A DNA stretch of 60,097 nucleotides from Acidobacteriota bacterium (GCA_050747825.1 JBOGJG010000330.1:1-60097); one strand, 5' to 3'; counted from the stretch's first letter, positions 1 to 11,163 are shown. The notes: generated by a model from the sequence alone, not told the origin. Numbers and translations: made by a program.

Positions 1-2
1 AT

Positions 3-320
3 CGACCCTTCGAAGAGCGGCGGCATGAACTCGCTGCCAATCACGAACAGCAACGGGACCGTGAGCGGGACCACGGCAAAATTGATGAGCAGCGCCGTCC
101 ACTTCCAGCGCAGCGCCAGACGGATGACGGGGTCGTACAGCCACGCGAAGAACCGCGACACGGGGTTCTGCGACTCGGGCTTGAGCCGTTGCCCGCGGAT
201 GAAGATCGTCATCAGCTCCGGCACCAGCGTGATCGAGAGCAACGACGCGAACAGCATCGCCGAGGTCTTCGTGAAGGCGAGAGGACGGAACATCCGTCCC
301 TCCTGCGCCTCGAGGAGGAA
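3..320 (-). pseudogene. cusA: Internal fragment of a CusA/CzcA-family heavy-metal efflux RND permease; runs off the left window edge and is 5'-truncated at ~320
   Basis: Manual minus-strand translation gives FLLEAQEGRMFRPLAFTKTSAMLFASLLSITLVPELMTIFIRG...NPVSRFFAWLYDPVIRLALRW...GSEFMPPLFEGS, a hallmark CusA segment. Upstream of 320 the frame is non-homologous and hits a TAG at 438-440. Not in the ORF track. Confidence 0.85.
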
Positions 321-447
321 CTGGAATACGACCGAGGGAATTTCACTGTATCCGGTAACGCTCTCGTTTGCGAAAAAGGTCGGGCAGCTGATGACCGAAC
401 TGCCTGAGAACTGCTCGCCGAATCCGTCGTACCGGTTCTACATGTAG
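319..447 (+). pseudogene. C-terminal 42 aa of a prokaryotic Argonaute (PIWI domain tail), 5'-truncated
   Basis: The tail of ORF 25..447 reads NWNTTEGISLYPVTLSFAKKVGQLMTELPENCSPNPSYRFYM*. This matches the conserved pAgo C-terminus (TK-x-NWN...PVTL-x-FA-x-KVG...Y-x-FY[MI]*). The ORF upstream of 319 is only the antisense of cusA. Confidence 0.75.
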
Positions 448-562
448 ACGTGCTTGGTCACGGCCGAGCTACAATCGAGCACGGGCATGCCGTAGGGGGC
501 AGCTGGCGTGTGCGGCTGGGTTTGGGTTCATGCCGCCAAGCGCCAAAGCTGCAGATAATGGC

Positions 563-583
563 GGTTGCGGGCCCCCGCAACCA
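563..583 (+). mobile_element. Putative att site: 14-nt copy of the tRNA-fMet 3' end (GGCCCCCGCAACCA, 570-583) within a palindrome
   Basis: 570-583 equals the 3' end including CCA of bacterial initiator tRNA (as in E. coli metZ). 563-570 GGTTGCGG is the perfect inverted repeat of 575-582. No full tRNA is present, and a terminator follows. Confidence 0.6.
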
Positions 584-598
584 AATTCCAATTCCTGG

Positions 599-618
599 GC
601 CGCGAAAGCGGCTTTTTT
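599..618 (+). terminator. Rho-independent terminator
   Basis: GCCGC-GAAA-GCGGC hairpin followed by TTTTTT. Confidence 0.8.
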
Positions 619-680
619 ATTGCCCTCCCTGTGTTTTTACTCACATGTTGCGTGTCGACTGGCTGTTAAATTGTGCAGTT

Positions 681-1007
681 GTACAATCCCACAACTTCCA
701 CAATGAGGTCATTGACCTGCATACCGCATGTGGAGGTGGGATCGCGATACTGGTCGGCGATTTTGCCGGCGGTGTAGTCACCGACAACCTGGTATACGCA
801 ATCGAGCTCACTGATACGCGGGCCGACGGCGCGCTCGATCCGGTCATCTTCAATAACATGGTGGGATTCAATGATCTGCGCGGAACCGAAAACCAGATCC
901 TTCTGACTCCGTCCAATCTGGACGAGGTAAACAACATTTCCCGAAACCTTGGCGAGAATCGAGGGCACGGATCACATCCGTCGATCTTCGGCCCGGGGGG
1001 TCATTAA
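681..1007 (+). pseudogene. Orphan C-terminal fragment of a probable secreted/parallel beta-helix protein
   Basis: Protein-like stretch HNFHNEVIDLHTACGGGIAILVGDFAGGVVTDNLV...FNDLRGTENQILLTPSNLDEVNNISRNLGENRGHGSHPSIFGPGGH* with high GC at third positions. It has no credible start, because the ORF's 5' part runs through the att site and terminator. The family call is by resemblance only. Confidence 0.4.
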
Positions 1008-1202
1008 GAGCAGCTTCCCCCGTATTCATCAATTGAACTGGCTCTCTGCCGGGGCAAAGAGTACCAGCACGGTCAATAGAATTCATCATGCATTCGATCC
1101 ACACGTCTTCACTAACTCTTGCAATAGAAGATCCGGTACTGAATACTAGAGTCAAATCTGAAAATTGTTTCACAATCGGAAATCCTGAAAGGGGAGGTTT
1201 CT

Positions 1203-4200
1203 ATGCACAAAAACGGCTTCCTGGCATTGCCGGCAATATTTCTGCTGGGCCTGCTGCCTGTCCTGGCGCAGGTGGAAACGGCAAATATCACGGGTACTGT
1301 AAGAGATTCGACGGGCGCCGTGATCCCTGGGGTGGACATCACCGTCACGCACGTGCAAACCAATCAGGAGGCGAGAGCGGTCACGGGCGAAGCCGGACGC
1401 TACGTCTCACCTCCTCTGCGTCCTGGCGACTACACCGTTGCCGCCGAATTGCCGGGCTTCAAGCGCATCGTGCGCAGCGGGATCAGGTTGCAGGTCCAGC
1501 AGACGGCGGTAATCGACTTTGTCCTTGAAGTTGGTGAGATGACCGAGCAGGTCGAAGTGGTAGCCGACGCTGCTCTGTTGAACACGACCGACGCCTCGCG
1601 CGGCGAAGTCATCGACAATCAGAAGATCGTAGAGCTTCCCCTCAATACCCGCGATTACCTGCAGCTTGCGCTGCTCACCGCCGGCAGCAATGTTCCGCCT
1701 CCAGGTTCCCGTTTTGGCGGCTTCAGCTCCAGCGGCATGCGCGTCAGCCACAATAACTACCTTCTGGACGGCATGGACAACAACAGCAACCAGCACGCGG
1801 CCCAGAGTCGCACCGGGGAGGTGATCTCCCCTTCCATCGATGCGATCCGGGAGTTTAAGGTTCTGACCACCAACTATTCGGCTGAATACGGGCGCAACGT
1901 GGGCGGGGTGGTTAATGTGGTCATGAAGTCGGGCACCAACGAATTTCACGGCGGCATCTATGAATTCCTGCGCAATGACGTGCTCGATGCCCGCAATTTC
2001 TTCGACGATCCCGATGAGCCGATCCCGCCCTACAGACGAAATCAGTTTGGTGGCACTCTGGGCGGCCCCGTTTTCCAGGACAAAACTTTTTTCTTTTTCG
2101 ACTATGAAGGCACGCGGCTGCGGCAGTCCCGGACCGTGCTTTCAACTATACCTACGGAGGCGGAAAGAAAAGGTGACTTTTCTCAATCTATCTTCAACCG
2201 GACGCCGGTGGAAATCTTTGATCCTGCAACTTACGATCCACCGACCAAAACGCGCCAGCCTTTTCCAAACAACATTATTCCGGAGAATCGGCTGGACCCG
2301 GCAGCTCTGCAAGTCGCTTCCTTTTATCCTCTGCCCAACCGACCCGGGGATATCAACAATTTTCTGTCTAACCCGTTGAACCAGGAAAATACGGATAAAT
2401 TCGATGTTCGAATCGACCATTCTTTTGGAGCTTCCGATACCCTGTTTGGGCGCTTCAGCTTTTTAAATTATGAGCAATTGCCTGAGGGAAATCTGCCCAC
2501 GGCTGAATTTCCACGCGGGACGGACGCGATCGACGCCGAAAATCAGGCGCGATCCTTTGTTCTTTCCTACAGCCACATCTTTTCTCCAACTCTTTTCATC
2601 ACTTCAAAACTGGGTTACAACCGCCTGCTGACCGAACGGACCTCTCCGATTGAGGAAGACCTCAATCAGCGAATCGGGCTAACGGGCACGCCTCAGATTC
2701 CCGGACTGGCAAGTTTTGGAATATCCGGCTTTCGGGGGCTCGGTTTCGCCAACACGCCTCATCTGGCGGATTCGCAGACTCGCCAGATCGTAAACGACTT
2801 GACCTGGGTGAAGGGCAAGCATTCCCTGAAGACCGGCATCAATTTCTTCTTTATCCAGGCGCCTCACACTCAGGTTTACCAGTCCCACGGCGTGTTTTCC
2901 TTTAACGGCAATTTCACTCGGCAGACTTCTCCTTTCAGCGGAGGACATCCGCTAGCTGACATGCTGCTGGGTATCCCGGCCACTACCCAGTTGGCCACGA
3001 TCGCGCGGGGTAACCAGCGCCGGCGCCTGTATCACGGCTACATCCAGGATGAAATCAAGGCCACTGCTAACCTGACCCTCAGTATGGGAGTGCGCTATGA
3101 GTACATCGGCCCGTGGTTTGAAAAATACAATCACTACTCCAATTTCGATATCGATACCGATCCGGTAAATCCACGCCTGCTGCTGGCGACAGACGGTGGC
3201 ATCAGCGAACGCTCGACTCTGGATCCCGACTACAACAACTTCGCGCCGCGGCTGGGGATTGCCTACAGGCTTGCGGAGAGGACCGTAATCCGCAGCGGCT
3301 ATGGCATCTACTATGGAGGTGTCACGCATATCGGTGACCGTTACCTGCACGCCAGCCCGCCCTTTTTCTTTCAGGCCAGAATCACGACCGACAGCATCCA
3401 GCCGACGGTAGTTCTGGCTGATGGAGTGCCGCCCCTGACCGATTTCGTCTCGAACCTTCAAACCATCTCCCAGGACCGGCGCAACCGCAATCCCTATTCG
3501 CAGCACTGGAATCTCACGATTCAGCACGAGCTGCGCAATGATCTGATGTTCGAGGTCGCCTACGCCGCAACCAAGGGGGCCAAGCTCATACGACGCTTTG
3601 ACACGAACGCTCCCGATCCAGGGCCAGGCAATATCAACAGGCGCCGACCGGTGACTCAGCTGGAGGTTCCCGGCCTGGATTACATTGTGACCCCTCTAGC
3701 CGATACTTTTCGACGGGAGTGGAGCGCCAATTCCAATTACCACTCCATGCAGACGAAGATCGAAAAGCGCTTCTCGGCAGGCCTTAGCTTTCTCGGCTCC
3801 TATACTTGGTCCAAGACGATCAGCGACTCTCGTGGGGGCGCCGATGCCGGTGGTACTGCACCGGTAGGAGTTCAAGATCGAAAAAATCTGCGGGCGGAGA
3901 GGTCGGTGGCTGATGAGCACATCCCTCACCGGTTTGTATTCACTGCCAATTACGATCTCCCTTTGGGCCGGGGAAGAGCGTTTATGTCTGGCGCGCACCC
4001 GGTATTAAACGCCATTTTTGGAGGCTGGGCGATTGCCGGGATCACGACATTTCAATCAGGAAGGCCTGAAAACATAGAAGTGACAAGGGATCCGGCCAAC
4101 AATGGCGGGTCGGCTCCCGATCGGCCCAACCGGCTCTCTGATCCGGAACTGCCCGGCCATGAAAGAACCCTGGACCGCTGGTTTGATACGGAAGCGTTCG

Positions 4201-5579: not shown

Positions 5580-7892
5580 CTAAAAAATATTGAACTCGCG
5601 GGTGAATTTGATGTAGAGGGCCCGGTTCAGGGGTTCTCCTCCCAGGATGCGGCGCTGGAAGCCGTAGTCGATTCTTTCCAGGTCCTGCGCTTCGTTGTAA
5701 ACAATATACAGGCCGGTGCCGGCGGCATTTAACCACCCGAAGCGGACGTTCGTGGACCAGTTGTCAGCGGCGTCGTTGTACTGGATCAGCGACTGCACAA
5801 AAATGCGGGGAGTAAATGAGTAATTGATGCGACTGGCTACACGGTTGGTGCGGAAGTCCCCGCCAAACTCGCCGTTTGGCCCTTCGACCGGAAAGCTCGC
5901 GTCATTATGCGTGTAACTGACAGACGTGAGCAGTTGCGAGCCGCCTCGCCAGTTCAATCCCAGAGCGTAGTTTCGAATGTTGCCGCTGTAGAAGCCTCCC
6001 GCATCCAGACCGACATCAAATGAGAAGGGGGCGCTCAGGTCCGAGTTGAACCTCCAGGCGATTTCCGCATTGCGATACGATCCAGGCGGGATAAAAACAT
6101 TCGGGAAAATCTCAAAGGGCTCCCGAAAGCCTTCCAGGGTGACGTTCACGGCGGGACTGAAGCGCGAACCGTTGTCCCACTCGACATGGGAATCCATGTG
6201 AATTCTCTCACTCTCCTTGAACCCGTCCAGCGAATAAAAAACATCGTAGGTCAAATGAGGACGAAGCTCCCGAAGCCATTGGATGGACTGGGGCCGAATA
6301 TAGGTAAAAGCCCCGGTCTCAATGTTCCTGTAGGCATTTCTTCGCAGGAAGCCCACCTCGGGATTGAAATTCTCGCCCACCTCCTTGTAGCCCAGCCAAA
6401 AGCGCCGCGTCCCGGTGGTGTACTCCCCATTTATACCAAAGGCATGGTCGCTCCCCTGGTAGGCGTCGTGTCCCTCTTCTTCATGAAAGGTGGACGTTTT
6501 CGCCAGGTATCCCGTGGCTAGAAAGGACTCCCCGATGCCCAGGCGTCCATCCACCCCGAAGGTGCGGTTATAGTCCTGCGAGCCGGCAGCGCTGGTGTTC
6601 TCCTTGTTCACCACAATGCCGCCGAGTTGGCTGCGCCGCCCAAAGTCCCGGCTGACTCGCCCCACGGTGAAATGGTTGGCGGGCGCAACACAGAGATCTG
6701 TTGAAGAGCAGTCCCCCAGGGAATCCGCCTGCATGCTGAGAAATCCGATGTTCCAGCGCTCGATCTTTCCGGTGAGACGACTTCCTCCCAGAATCGGCAC
6801 GATGGCTTCGTCGTCGGAGATTCCGATCCTGCGGCTGAAGAACAGCTCGACTTCCTGCGAGCTTCCGACCGCAAAAAGACCTGCGTTTTCAAGGAAAAAG
6901 GGGCGTTTTTCCGGGAAGAACAAATTGAAGCGGGTCAAGTTGATCTGCTGCTCATCCACTTCGACCTGGGCGAAGTCGGTATTGTAGGTCAGGTCGAGCG
7001 TCAGGCTGGGGGTGAGGCTGTACTTCATGTCGAATCCGCCGTCACCCAGATAGGTCGCATCTCCTTGCGGGTCTCCCTCGTAGTCGCGCCGGGCAGAGCC
7101 GATCACGTAGGGTATGACCTTGAAATTGCGAGGCGGCTGCACCTCGAGTCCATGGAGTTCACCGGCGTAGGTCAGACGGTAGAGGTCCCATTGGCGGGGG
7201 ACAGGTGACCAGTAATCCTGCTCGTTCTTGCGACGGATATTACGGGCAAAGTTAACACCCCAGACCTGAGTGTCACTCTCGCGGAAGCGCAGCGTGCTGA
7301 AGGGGATTTTAAACTCCGCCATCCAGCCCTCGTTATTGGTATGAGTGGCGACCTGCCAGTTTCCGTCCCAGTTCTTGTTGACGCCTCCACCGGAACCTCG
7401 CTGGGTCCTCCGGCTGCCGGCCGGTCCCGGGCCGCCTCCGCCTCCGCTGCCCTCCTTGGAGATCTGGGCGTCAAACTCGAGGCCGGAGGGATTGGTCCCG
7501 AAGACGAACCCGCTTTGCCTGTCCAGGAAGGTGTCGAAGACCATCCAGAAGGCGTCGGTATTCACGAGATCAGCGTCGCGCTCGCTTTCAGAAACGAGAA
7601 TGCCGGAGGGATCGCTGTCGTAACATGCCACACCGACATAGAGGTTCTCAGTGTCGTAAAGCAAAGTAACTTCGGTCCGTTCAGTCGCCGGCTTTCCCTC
7701 GAGGGGCTCGTTCTGCACGAAATCGGAAAGAGGCGAGCCCAACTGCCAGACCGGGTCATCAAGGAGACCGTCGATGGTTGGACCTTCTTCCACTTTCATG
7801 GCCTGCGCCTGGCGTCTCGCTCCGTTATCCTGGGCGAAAACACCAGGGGACAGCAGCAGGAAGAGCAGAGTAGCTGATACCTTAACTTGCAA
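5580..7892 (-). CDS. DUF5916 protein (N-terminal CBM9-like domain plus predicted outer-membrane barrel)
   Basis: Signal peptide; P-x-IDG-x-LDD-x-VW, F-x-Q-x-EP, TYNTDFAQVEVD, NLTRFNLFFPEKRPFFLE, LFFSRRIG; ends in F. Confidence 0.85.
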   Translation of the reverse strand: MQVKVSATLLFLLLSPGVFAQDNGARRQAQAMKVEEGPTIDGLLDDPVWQLGSPLSDFVQNEPLEGKPATERTEVTLLYDTENLYVGVACYDSDPSGILVSESERDADLVNTDAFWMVFDTFLDRQSGFVFGTNPSGLEFDAQISKEGSGGGGGPGPAGSRRTQRGSGGGVNKNWDGNWQVATHTNNEGWMAEFKIPFSTLRFRESDTQVWGVNFARNIRRKNEQDYWSPVPRQWDLYRLTYAGELHGLEVQPPRNFKVIPYVIGSARRDYEGDPQGDATYLGDGGFDMKYSLTPSLTLDLTYNTDFAQVEVDEQQINLTRFNLFFPEKRPFFLENAGLFAVGSSQEVELFFSRRIGISDDEAIVPILGGSRLTGKIERWNIGFLSMQADSLGDCSSTDLCVAPANHFTVGRVSRDFGRRSQLGGIVVNKENTSAAGSQDYNRTFGVDGRLGIGESFLATGYLAKTSTFHEEEGHDAYQGSDHAFGINGEYTTGTRRFWLGYKEVGENFNPEVGFLRRNAYRNIETGAFTYIRPQSIQWLRELRPHLTYDVFYSLDGFKESERIHMDSHVEWDNGSRFSPAVNVTLEGFREPFEIFPNVFIPPGSYRNAEIAWRFNSDLSAPFSFDVGLDAGGFYSGNIRNYALGLNWRGGSQLLTSVSYTHNDASFPVEGPNGEFGGDFRTNRVASRINYSFTPRIFVQSLIQYNDAADNWSTNVRFGWLNAAGTGLYIVYNEAQDLERIDYGFQRRILGGEPLNRALYIKFTREFNIF

Positions 7893-7922
7893 TCGGCGAA
7901 GTCTTCCTTCTAAAGCGCGAAC

Positions 7923-8603
7923 CTATAACTGGGGCGTGAAACCGAGCACGATGTCGAAATTCGTCGCAAGCTCGCCGATCCGCGAATTCTGCACGGGCGC
8001 AAAGTCTGACATGACGGCGGCCCGGGCTTTGGGATCACGGATGGCGCGGAATATAGAATCCTGCTCGTTCTCCGGTTCACCTTTAACATAAAGCTGGGTT
8101 GTGAACTGTTCATTCCCTTTGACCCGGACGGCAAAATGGATGTGCGGCGTACGCTGGGTGTTTCCGGCCCTGTAGGGCACCGGCTTGATGGTCCGAAAGT
8201 AGTATCCGCCGTTAGACCCGGTCAGAAAGCGGCCGAATCCCTGGAAATTTGCATCCAGCTTCTCCCGGCTGGAACTTCCCGTGTGGAGGTAAACTCCCCG
8301 GCTGTCCACTTGCCAGATCTCGACCACCGCATTGCGGACCGGCTCACCTCGCGCATCCAGAATCCGCCCGCTGAGATGCGTAATCTCTCCCACCGCAGCG
8401 TCCAGCGCATCGTTGATGATCAGCAGGTCATTGTCCGTGTCCAGTGGCATGCGATCAGGGTAAAAAGGCCCTTCGGTCTGACGCGGAGTACGAACAAGCT
8501 CCTGGGCGAAAAGGCCAGGCACACTCAATGCGCCTACTCCGGCGGCCATGCCTTTCAAAAAATGTCGACGAGTCCGAAGCGAGTCGATTCTCCTCATTTC
8601 CAC
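7923..8603 (-). CDS. Tat-exported intradiol ring-cleavage dioxygenase (protocatechuate 3,4-dioxygenase family)
   Basis: RRHFLKG Tat motif; TEGPFYPD, VEIWQ, GxY, TIKPVPY, RTPHIHF (Tyr/Tyr/His/His iron ligands). Confidence 0.88.
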   Translation of the reverse strand: MEMRRIDSLRTRRHFLKGMAAGVGALSVPGLFAQELVRTPRQTEGPFYPDRMPLDTDNDLLIINDALDAAVGEITHLSGRILDARGEPVRNAVVEIWQVDSRGVYLHTGSSSREKLDANFQGFGRFLTGSNGGYYFRTIKPVPYRAGNTQRTPHIHFAVRVKGNEQFTTQLYVKGEPENEQDSIFRAIRDPKARAAVMSDFAPVQNSRIGELATNFDIVLGFTPQL

Positions 8604-8659
8604 ACCTCCATTGATGCGAAACTTTATCTCAGTACGAAATTAGAACGCAAGCCCGGAGG

Positions 8660-8688
8660 TTGACATTGTTCTGACGATGGTATAGCTT
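8660..8688 (+). promoter_or_regulatory. Sigma70-like promoter for the riboswitch/btu operon
   Basis: TTGACA (8660-8665), 17 bp, TAGCTT (8683-8688), ~20 bp upstream of riboswitch P1. Confidence 0.6.
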
Positions 8689-8710
8689 TTCATTGTTGTT
8701 TCATTGTCGC

Positions 8711-8878
8711 GGTTAAGGCGCGAGAAAAGGGGAAGCGGGTGAAAGGCCCGCACGGTCGCGCCACTGTGAACGGTGAGCAGATTTCAACGGGCGGAAAGAC
8801 CGCCGGTCACTCCCGATTGCCGGGGGGAAGGCCTTGAAAGATGCGCTTGAGCCGTAAGTCAGGAAACCTGCCTTAACC
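8711..8878 (+). ncRNA. Cobalamin (AdoCbl) riboswitch
   Basis: P1 GGTTAAGG/CCTTAACC; conserved AAAAGGGGAAGCGGGTGAAAGGCCCG, GCCACTG, GGGAAG and AGTCAGGAAACCTGCC; directly upstream of a BtuB-like gene. Confidence 0.93.
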
Positions 8879-8967
8879 ACTGTTTCACAACTCTTCGCGT
8901 CAAGGAGGTTGGGATTTGCTTGTTTCACTCCCTCACTCATTTGACGCCCATTGTCGAAAGGGGCGTT

Positions 8968-11163
8968 ATGTGCAACTTTTTTCTCCCACTGATAGGGACT
9001 GTGCTGATCTCATTCGGCCTGGTGTTCCCACAAACGATCTCAGGGCGGGTAGCCGACTCTCAGGCCAATCCAATTCCTTCGGTGCGTCTTTCCCTGCTGG
9101 AAAACGGCCGGTATGTCGCCACTCAGGTGACCGATGAACACGGCGGCTATTCCTTCGAAGGGCTCAAGCCGGGAAACTACGTTCTTTCCATCAGGCAACT
9201 CGGGTTTCGGCAGGAGCAGATAGAGCTGCGGCTGCCGGCCGGGGAGACTCTCGGCCACGACGTCGTCCTCGAACTGGACTCGCTGAAGGAGCATGTGGTC
9301 GTCACTGCCACTCGTACGGAATCAGCGGCCAGCCTGCTGGGCAGCAGCATCTCAGTTATAAGCTCGCAGGAAATTGAAGCTCAGAATGCGGCAACCGTCG
9401 CAGAGGTGCTGCGCAATGTACCCGGGATGAACATCGTGCAGGTCGGGGGGACAGGCTCGATCAGCTCACTGTTCCTGCGGGGAGGCGAGTCGGATTACAC
9501 GAAGGTGTTTTTGGATGGGATCCCCCTGAACCAGCCCGGGGGGGCGATCGATCTGTCCAACCTTTCGACGGCCAACATCGAGCGGATCGAGATTGTCCGC
9601 GGACCGCAAAGCGCCCTGTACGGCTCGGATGCCATCAGCGGAGTTATTCAGATTTTCACAAAAAGAGGCGAGGGGGGCGGAACGACTCCGAGGACCGACC
9701 TTTTCCTGGAAGGAGGCAGCTATGACTGGGGCCGTGCGGGATTTTCCCTTAGCGGAGACCTGGGGGGGCTCTGGTACAGCACGGCCGTCCAGCACGTTAG
9801 CACCAGCAATGAGGTCGCTAATGATTACTTCCGCAATAACACCTACAGTCTCAATCTCGGAGTCAGGACTTCCGAAAATTCAGCCCTGACGTTTACAGGC
9901 CGCGCGGAACGCGGCCGGCAGGGTGTCCCGGGGGCGGTGGCTTTTGGACCGCCCGACCTGGAGGAATTCGGCCGAAAGCGGGATTTTGCCGTGGGACTTC
10001 AATGGGATCACCGGGTTTCGGATTCTTGGCAACACAAGCTGTCCTACTCACAAAGTTATCTGAACCAGCTTTCCGCCGACCCCATCGATTCCGGCTCATT
10101 CATCCCGCGATTCGGCAACAGGCAGGCGCCATTTCCGGTCTTTGATTTCGTGTTTTTCTCCCTCAACTCGAGCAGGCGCCATAATGTGAATTATCAAAGC
10201 GACTTCTTCCTTGCCGATCACTTACTTTCGCTGGGCCTCGAAGTCGAAGAGGAGCGCGGCGCCGTCAGCACCACTCGCGTGGATCGCACAAATACAGGCG
10301 TTTACCTCCAGGACCAGGTCATGGCCACGTCTCGACTCGCGATTACCGGCGGCATCCGCCTGGAAAATAATGAGAGCTTCGGTTTTGCCGCAATTCCTCG
10401 AGTTTCGGTGGCTTACCTCGCCAGAGATCCCGGCGCTCAAAGCTCCTTGGGAATGACCAGGGCGAAGCTCAACTTCGGCCTGGGTGTGAAAGAACCCACG
10501 TTTGTGGAATCTTTCAGCCCGAATTTCTTCTTTCAGGGAAATCCGGACCTTAAACCGGAGCGGACGACCAGTGTCGAGGCCGGTCTTGAGCAGGAGCTGG
10601 CGCAAAACCGCATCGTGCTTGAAGCGAATGCCTTTTATAATGTCTTCGAAGATCAGATTGCGTTTCGGGTGGTAGATCCAGAGACGTTTGAGGCATCCTT
10701 CTTCAACATAGCCAGGAGTCAAGCCTGGGGAATCGAGCAGATCCTGACATTCAGGATGGCGAACGATCTGAGGGCATCGGCCGGCTACACCTACCTGAAC
10801 ACGCGCGTCTTGAGGAGCGCCTCGCCGGGGGATCCGCAGTTCAGCGAGGGAGCCAGGCTGCTGCGCCGGCCAACTCACTCAGGCTTTCTGGGTTTGACCT
10901 GGAGATCCGGAAACTGGTCTTTGAATAGCAATGCTACTCTGATCGGCAACCGGGCCGACAGTGATTTTCACCACGGCCTGGCATTGACAGAGGCCGAGCC
11001 TTACGCAAAGTGGGATATGACGGCGAGCTACCGCATCCGTCCAGCCCTGGAACTCTACGCGACGGTCGAGAACCTGCTGGACCAGGATTACTTCGAGGCT
11101 CTGGGCTTCCCGGCACTGGGCGCCACCGTCCGGTCTGGGCTCAGAGTGCATTATGGAGAATAG
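8968..11163 (+). CDS. btuB: TonB-dependent cobalamin receptor with N-terminal CarboxypepD domain
   Basis: VVVTATRTE, LFLRGGESDYTKV, IERIEIVRGPQSALYGSDAISGVI, ENLLDQDY. ATG 8968 is preferred over track start 8920 because of the RBS/sequestering hairpin. Under a B12 riboswitch. Confidence 0.88.
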   Translation: MCNFFLPLIGTVLISFGLVFPQTISGRVADSQANPIPSVRLSLLENGRYVATQVTDEHGGYSFEGLKPGNYVLSIRQLGFRQEQIELRLPAGETLGHDVVLELDSLKEHVVVTATRTESAASLLGSSISVISSQEIEAQNAATVAEVLRNVPGMNIVQVGGTGSISSLFLRGGESDYTKVFLDGIPLNQPGGAIDLSNLSTANIERIEIVRGPQSALYGSDAISGVIQIFTKRGEGGGTTPRTDLFLEGGSYDWGRAGFSLSGDLGGLWYSTAVQHVSTSNEVANDYFRNNTYSLNLGVRTSENSALTFTGRAERGRQGVPGAVAFGPPDLEEFGRKRDFAVGLQWDHRVSDSWQHKLSYSQSYLNQLSADPIDSGSFIPRFGNRQAPFPVFDFVFFSLNSSRRHNVNYQSDFFLADHLLSLGLEVEEERGAVSTTRVDRTNTGVYLQDQVMATSRLAITGGIRLENNESFGFAAIPRVSVAYLARDPGAQSSLGMTRAKLNFGLGVKEPTFVESFSPNFFFQGNPDLKPERTTSVEAGLEQELAQNRIVLEANAFYNVFEDQIAFRVVDPETFEASFFNIARSQAWGIEQILTFRMANDLRASAGYTYLNTRVLRSASPGDPQFSEGARLLRRPTHSGFLGLTWRSGNWSLNSNATLIGNRADSDFHHGLALTEAEPYAKWDMTASYRIRPALELYATVENLLDQDYFEALGFPALGATVRSGLRVHYGE

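Follow-up and report, generated by a model that had tools for sequence, protein, structure and literature searches.

A stretch of 60,097 nucleotides from an Acidobacteriota bacterium (GCA_050747825.1, JBOGJG010000330.1:1-60097; hereafter the window) carries, close to its left end, a short open frame that reads like the tail of a prokaryotic Argonaute (pAgo). Is this tail the last visible piece of a defence system cut off by the assembly, or is it what remains of a system that has been lost? A preliminary description of the window favoured the former, proposing a pAgo system, possibly an uncharacterised one, that had integrated at an initiator tRNA gene. We examined the tail, the DNA on either side of it and a set of related loci.

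We found that the peptide encoded by the frame (Table 1) matches the PADLOC profile pAgo_I (PDLC02376; E = 1.4e-12) over profile positions 414-455 of 455, and that its best match among PDB sequences by phmmer is 9om4_B, 'Prokaryotic argonaute MID-PIWI family protein' (E = 3.7e-7, residues 429-471 of 471). All eight PDB matches at E <= 10 are short pAgos, each aligned at its own C-terminus. The 42-residue tail thus aligns end to end with the C-termini of pAgo_I and of solved pAgos, and its identification as a pAgo C-terminus is upheld by the pAgo-clade profiles with which it was to be checked. The Pfam Piwi family (PF02171), proposed as a further check, has no match to the peptide at E <= 10; this negative is uninformative for the clade, because an intact 498-aa relative is also without a Piwi match at E <= 0.01. 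As Pfam Piwi misses the clade entirely, even at full length, PADLOC or PDB-based searches are needed to find its members. Pfam and NCBIfam searches of the peptide and neighbouring ORFs returned nothing except ACR_tran, on the minus strand.

Table 1. Features of the left end of the window and of tail-only pAgo relics at other loci.
Sequence	Feature	Position	Strand	Remarks
Window	cusA/czcA-type RND pump pseudogene fragment	1..320	-	~CusA residues 471-575; continues left of window
Window	cusA/pAgo junction	311..320	.	10 nt CGAGGAGGAA, readable from either parent
Window	Short-pAgo gene remnant	319..447	+	Last 42 codons + TAG, without own start codon; 319-444 (frame +1) encode NWNTTEGISLYPVTLSFAKKVGQLMTELPENCSPNPSYRFYM, stop TAG 445-447
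Window	Spacer	448..562	.	115 nt, pAgo stop to first hairpin
Window	Perfect 8-bp GC-rich hairpin	563..582	+	GGTTGCGG-GCCC-CCGCAACC; -15 kcal/mol
Window	14-mer matching initiator tRNA-Met 3' end	570..583	+	GGCCCCCGCAACCA; T-stem GGC, acceptor strand, ACCA
Window	Predicted intrinsic terminator	597..620	+	Stem 597-614 GGGCCGC/GCGGCUU, GAAA loop, T613-618 (U6)
L046	pAgo relic	132-242		L006 residues 458-498 kept
L004	pAgo relic	481-672		L006 residues 435-498 kept
L045	pAgo relic	9883-10114		L006 residues 423-498 kept, frameshifted
L010	pAgo relic	1794-2040		L006 residues 415-498 kept, frameshifted
L007	pAgo relic	9476-10126		L006 residues 282-498 kept
L039	pAgo relic	1095-1749		L006 residues 282-498 kept

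Short pAgos carry a complete MID and PIWI in one ORF of about 450-520 aa. At the window locus, an intact pAgo from an Acidobacteriota MAG (L006) aligns by tblastn through residues 454-498 of 498 only, with 75.6% identity, and about 9% of the gene is left. The segment is a remnant of a member of the short-pAgo family and not a member gene. Nearly all relatives conserve the Arg of an S-R-Y-P motif, where the remnant has Leu, and a conserved internal Met is missing at the junction with the DNA to the left; in these two changes the remnant shows relaxed constraint.

The class of the lost gene can be named from its relatives. A word-indexed protein search with the peptide yielded three fragments only, of 43-63 aa; back-translated scans of GTDB genomes and JGI metagenomes added 41 further loci, and it was from these DNA-level scans that the intact relatives came. 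Most related loci have an open gene of ~500 codons ending ...KMNWN..EG..RYP[IV]TLSFAKKVG..M.E....PNPSYRFYM. Relatives 70-83% identical to the tail are ~500-aa MID-PIWI proteins encoded directly after a SIR2-APAZ gene, which in intact relatives is a gene of 837-854 aa. In L006 the pAgo matches pAgo_I with E = 6e-138, its best solved relative being 9om4_B (E = 1e-56), and the partner matches the PADLOC profile Aga_SIR2-PNTD1-PNTD2 (SIR2-APAZ) with E = 4e-163 and the Pfam family SIR2_2. The partner is present in four relatives (L003, L005, L006 and L016). Since the intact ~500-aa relatives follow a SIR2-APAZ partner of ~850 aa, the remnant can be assigned, on the evidence of homology, to a SIR2-APAZ / short-pAgo operon (SPARSA-like, PADLOC class I). 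The class had been described as unreadable from the sequence, and in this respect the earlier account is superseded. Systems of this kind are an already known defence type (for examples, see the accounts in PMC10781750 and PMC11452484). Where the window differs from such systems is that, with so little of the pAgo gene and no partner gene, nothing can function; its clade is set apart by the length of the partner, for which PDB sequences gave no match at E <= 1e-5, and by its invisibility to Pfam Piwi.

Some features of the relatives deserve mention in their own right. The partner (L006 6103-8667; L003 6152-8665) also matches the PADLOC SIR2-Kinase-APAZ profile, and in L006 only it has a weak HATPase_c_4-like middle region, a sub-threshold Pfam match. 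The pAgo genes of L003 and L016 are full length but frameshifted. In L003 (Novosphingobium sp. 9U, LR732497.1; 8490-10132) the frameshift lies 54 codons before the end, and the annotation lists the tail by itself, as a 43-aa 'hypothetical protein' (P0003).

What lies to the left of the tail bears on its truncation. The minus strand of window 1-320 encodes ...FLLEAQEGRMFRPLAFTKT...EFMPPLFEGS, which matches Pfam ACR_tran (E = 1.8e-14, profile 450-558) and E. coli CusA, the heavy-metal RND efflux pump of CusCBA (PDB 3k07; E = 1.7e-21, query F39-G144 aligned with CusA 471-575). The copy in the window differs from CusA in being a pseudogene with two deletions and a C-terminal YHS domain: ~470 residues are absent at the N-terminus, and from the full call in L001 (492 aa) a further ~110 are missing internally. 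An ORF is listed at 25-447 on the plus strand; its part upstream of ~320 is an antisense shadow of cusA. CusA homology runs up to the F encoded at 318-320, and blastn homology to 39 related pAgo loci, which is confined to window ~310-450, starts at 310-319 or later at 348-349. At the junction position the relatives read CGAAGATGAA (T-K-M-N). Thus the 3' half of cusA, on the minus strand at the left, stands back to back with the 3' tail of pAgo, on the plus strand at the right. In L001, the cusA remnant (7613-9091; window 1-293 and leftwards) has its internal gap between ...RPGMTMEGL and GGENVTQTIEGRERYPVNVRY, ends in the YHS domain and has a GC3 of 0.89.

The preliminary description had taken the gene to be cut off by the end of the assembly. 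The contig CDIKIH010000118.1 (GCA_975374895.1, 86.9 kb) extends 12.8 kb to the left of the window, so the truncation lies in the DNA and not at an assembly edge; the tail is fused to cusA. When the 23 kb of L001 were searched by tblastn for the upstream gene and partners, as had been proposed, the intact pAgo aligned through the residues of the tail and no other part was found; two SIR2-APAZ proteins, queried for a gene directly upstream as in the operon, found nothing. The expectation of an uncharacterised full locus waiting to be recovered is therefore not borne out in these 23 kb, and the view that a remnant is all that is left holds.

We consider it probable, at roughly three chances in four, that 319-447 is the non-functional 3' leftover of a SIR2-APAZ-associated short-pAgo gene whose operon was otherwise lost, that is, a deletion remnant at the edge of an island. 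The ancestral arrangement is assumed to have been a leftward cusA gene beside a rightward SIR2-APAZ/pAgo operon. A single deletion would then have removed the 5' parts of both together with everything between them, including ~455 pAgo codons and the SIR2-APAZ gene of ~850 codons, and would have joined the pAgo tail to the 3' half of cusA at the stretch of ~10 nt that either parent can supply. A single deletion between divergent genes produces exactly the back-to-back geometry observed. The adjacency of the two ancestors is an assumption of this model, as none of the related loci has cusA beside a pAgo operon. No working Argonaute system is present at the locus, nor a hidden or uncharacterised one; gene loss has left an ordinary trace, a coding remnant of 126 nt that belongs to a catalogued type (SIR2-APAZ plus short pAgo) and lies where a decayed copper-resistance island ends, in an Acidobacteriota-like MAG. 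The locus illustrates, cleanly and on a small scale, how a defence operon disappears and what stays behind.

The deletion model places the tail at an island edge, and the composition of the flanks agrees. Genes to the left have a GC content of 63-69% and a GC3 of 0.78-0.89, those to the right 51-60% and 0.62-0.71; the fall in GC takes place across window ~300-700. The cusA fragment has a GC3 of 0.89-0.915, against the 0.62-0.71 of the host genes. The genes on the left are cusA, pieces of an IS66 transposase, Usp, PEMT, a copper P-type ATPase and a VKOR/SPW gene, and those on the right an orphan 100-aa ORF, TonB-dependent receptors, a dehydrogenase and others. Because GC and GC3 step from high on the left to host-like on the right, the reading of the pAgo tail as the right-hand edge of a foreign, decayed, IS66-bearing copper-resistance island is supported, and with it the earlier suggestion that an island ends here. 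Two genes on the left are split: in L001 the copper P-type ATPase (1123-3373) is called as three ORFs (HMBD, E1-E2_ATPase and Hydrolase) and the IS66 transposase (5805-7302) as two (DUF6444 and DDE_Tnp_IS66). These splits may represent either real pseudogenisation or assembly indel errors, and sequencing or assembly indels could account for part of them in place of real decay.

Downstream of the tail, the spacer resembles none of the 43 related pAgo loci at the DNA level, and window 440-1210 has no match to plasmids. The palindrome that follows was found as previously placed, with the 14-mer as its right arm. It is unique in the window, where 0.03 copies would be expected at up to three mismatches, and its 20 nt have no match in viral contigs. 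The U-tailed hairpin reported beyond it is also real: it folds at -11.8 kcal/mol, was called terminator-like and, with a GC-rich stem-loop directly before a U-run, is a predicted intrinsic terminator (597-618) that would act on the plus strand only, there being no T-run after the stem on the minus strand. The region 556-625 folds better than shuffled sequences (z = -2.5). Both hairpins (563-582; 597-614 with U6) may together represent a plus-strand terminator that once ended the pAgo operon or a tRNA gene, and that would now have at most a role in stopping read-through. As no DNA downstream of the pAgo stop is conserved among the 43 related loci, the hairpins are not assignable to the pAgo operon by conservation.

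Three candidates for this segment were rejected. The Rfam family isrK scored 19.5 bits against a gathering score of 50, which reflects only the likeness of a hairpin with a U-tail; a REP-like repeat at 563-582 is excluded by its single copy; and for a pseudo-tRNA at 500-583 the alignment with metV is random beyond the 14-mer and a GGTT forced by the palindrome, with nothing from ARAGORN or Rfam. A little further right, window 668-697 forms a 30-nt imperfect palindrome (AAATTGTGCAG-TTGTACAA-TCCCACAACTT). The Logan contig L002 (SRR27067772, same strain) is 100% identical to the window from 684 rightwards, its position 1 being window 684, inside the TTGTACAA core of this palindrome. As the segment 668-697 occurs only once in the window, the break is not explained by a repeat there; it could reflect variation between strains, or a site of recombination lying ~100 nt rightward of the putative att site.

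How the island might have entered is a separate question, compatible with the deletion model and adding to it a mechanism of entry. It has been proposed that a tRNA-fMet gene received an island with the pAgo system (and, by extension, the copper genes) on it, that 570-583 is the duplicated 3' end of that gene, at the distal att site, and that 597-620 is the tRNA's own terminator. The 14-mer is identical at 14 of 14 positions, ACCA included, to the 3' end of the initiator tRNA gene metV of E. coli, a reference that may differ from the host's tRNA; the claim that it is an initiator tRNA-Met 3' end is in this sense confirmed. Over both strands, 120 kb in all, ~5e-4 exact copies of a 14-mer are expected, and a chance match is unlikely. 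In E. coli, metV ends GGTTCAAATCCGGCCCCCGCAACCA; an AT-rich spacer of 8 nt comes next, then a short hairpin and finally a T-run, and the layout in the window (tRNA end, short AT-rich spacer, U-tailed hairpin) mirrors this end of the metZWV operon. The site also coincides with the compositional boundary, has the polarity expected of a plus-strand tRNA with the island at its left, and finds an echo in one sister relic (L004), where a tRNA-Pro gene is 290 bp away. Pathogenicity islands are known that are flanked by direct repeats of 16-18 bp derived from the 3' ends of tRNAs, and in E. coli CFT073 metV is known as a site that an island occupies. A published att example has repeats of 44 bp (PMC9897764). 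In its short tRNA 3' end copy with CCA, its terminator, its boundary and its polarity, the window thus resembles the att remnants that integrative islands leave in tRNA genes; it differs from them in that the match is of 14 nt only and lies inside a perfect palindrome, and in that the ~69 kb of its contig that were searched hold no intact tRNA partner or integrase. ARAGORN, and Rfam at E <= 10, found no T-loop or other tRNA feature upstream of the 14-mer; no second copy of the 14-mer occurs at up to two mismatches in the window or L009 (together ~69 kb); there is no tRNA in the 60 kb of the window, in L001 or in L009; and the genes called in the 9.3 kb leftward include no integrase family, only the IS66 transposase pieces. 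Against the proposal also stand the absence of a tRNA within 10 kb at 42 of 43 related pAgo loci, the left arm of the palindrome, which a simple att duplication leaves unexplained, the break of the other assembly at 684 and not at 570-583, the lack of any exact match in JGI metagenomes to a 24-mer spanning the tRNA end and its flank, and the fact that the identity is known relative to E. coli metV and not to the host's tRNA-fMet. If the proposal were true, an island-free relative would read tRNA-fMet directly, then AATTCCAATTCCTGGGCCGCGAAAGCGGC / AATTCCAATTCCTGGGCCGCGAAAGCGGCTTTTTT; a relative with a usable empty site did not come to light, as the flanking 100-aa ORF is an orphan, the nearest homologues of the TonB receptor are only ~62% identical, and the two examined share no synteny. 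What stood of the att-site claim is therefore the match, the boundary and the polarity, whereas a T-loop, second copy, tRNA and integrase were missing from the stretches searched. We regard 570-583 as a possible tRNA-derived att remnant and entry of the island at a tRNA-fMet gene as tentative, with the odds somewhat against it: a 14-nt match to a tRNA end at an island edge is suggestive, and an att call requires the partner tRNA.

The same hairpin has been considered as a functional element itself, its likeness to tRNA-fMet being convergent or coincidental; it might serve as the core site of a recombinase, or might form, where a transcript ends, a minihelix that stabilises the RNA or resembles a tRNA acceptor. 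Chance would rarely produce a perfect 8-bp palindrome, the folding excess over shuffles (given above) points the same way, and the 20 nt may be parsed 7-6-7 like the core of a tyrosine recombinase site. Yet the hairpin is single copy, conserved in no related locus and absent from viral contigs, no Rfam family matches it, and the ACC in what would be the CCA end is paired, which it is not in a tRNA; we judge this explanation highly improbable. The deletion model itself has as its main caveat that one MAG contig alone carries the junction; the only other assembly of the strain (SRR27067772) ends at 684, leaving the junction uncovered. The junction at 311-320 might then be an assembly chimera of two fragments that are adjacent in no real genome, as would be suggested by its being carried by one contig only, by the end of an independent Logan contig at 684, and by a head-to-head join of two gene 3' parts, which is the kind of structure that chimeric reads can create. 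However, 10 shared nucleotides are too few to mislead a k-mer assembler; the independent internal deletion in cusA and the broken neighbours fit real decay; and at least six other contigs have pAgo relics that consist of the tail only, among different neighbours. A chimera is thus very unlikely, and even then continuous sequence would connect the pAgo tail with the host TonB-receptor gene 750 bp away, which leaves the remnant standing. The deletion remnant at an island edge remains the reading that we prefer.

The fate of the window's operon is not an isolated case. Relics of pAgo truncated at the 5' end were found in at least seven independent loci (the window, L004, L010, L045, L046, L007 and L039; Table 1), which keep the last 41-217 codons of ~500, five of the seven keeping 84 or fewer; the neighbours of the six relics outside the window differ from each other. 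The search was anchored on the pAgo tail, and relics that keep a 5' part only lie outside its reach. Loss of the SIR2-APAZ/pAgo operon is evidently common. The two closest database matches of the window's tail (P0001 and P0002) are short fragments too, so that for such tails the closest database 'proteins' are themselves fragments; the contig of P0001 is a candidate eighth relic. Tail-only relics may also be something other than random debris, produced by a directional process at the edges of defence islands, an idea that we consider unlikely. Under it, cargo might be replaced or deleted time after time up to a point just within the last gene; or the tail, with its 3' flank, might border a recombination site, for example an att site derived from tRNA-fMet whose palindromic core is unusual.

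Two of these relics have surroundings of some interest. L004, a JGI contig of 991 bp, reads through the C-terminus of SurE, a tRNA-Pro(CGG) gene (135-211), ~270 nt, a 64-codon pAgo tail and a HigB/RelE-like toxin ORF (785-991), and is the only one of the 43 related loci with a tRNA nearby. In L007 (Sphingomonas sp. IC-11), an ORF at 10289-10876 follows the 217-codon pAgo remnant after ~160 nt; judged by its sequence (MLIGYARVSTPEQD...) it looks like a serine recombinase (resolvase/invertase), which, if true, would indicate a transposon context there.

To the right of the tail, the ORF by the terminator (window 666-968, minus strand, 100 aa) has no homologue but itself among 5.8 billion proteins; its codon-position GC pattern is host-like, with low GC2, and it may or may not be a real gene. 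Further right, a cobalamin riboswitch (window 8699-8889, plus strand; Rfam RF00174, 87.6 bits, E = 2.8e-20) immediately precedes the gene of a TonB-dependent receptor (8920-11163), which is followed by Peripla_BP_2, FecCD, ABC_tran and CbiA genes. The riboswitch, receptor, transporter and CbiA genes together look like a cluster for the uptake and salvage of vitamin B12.
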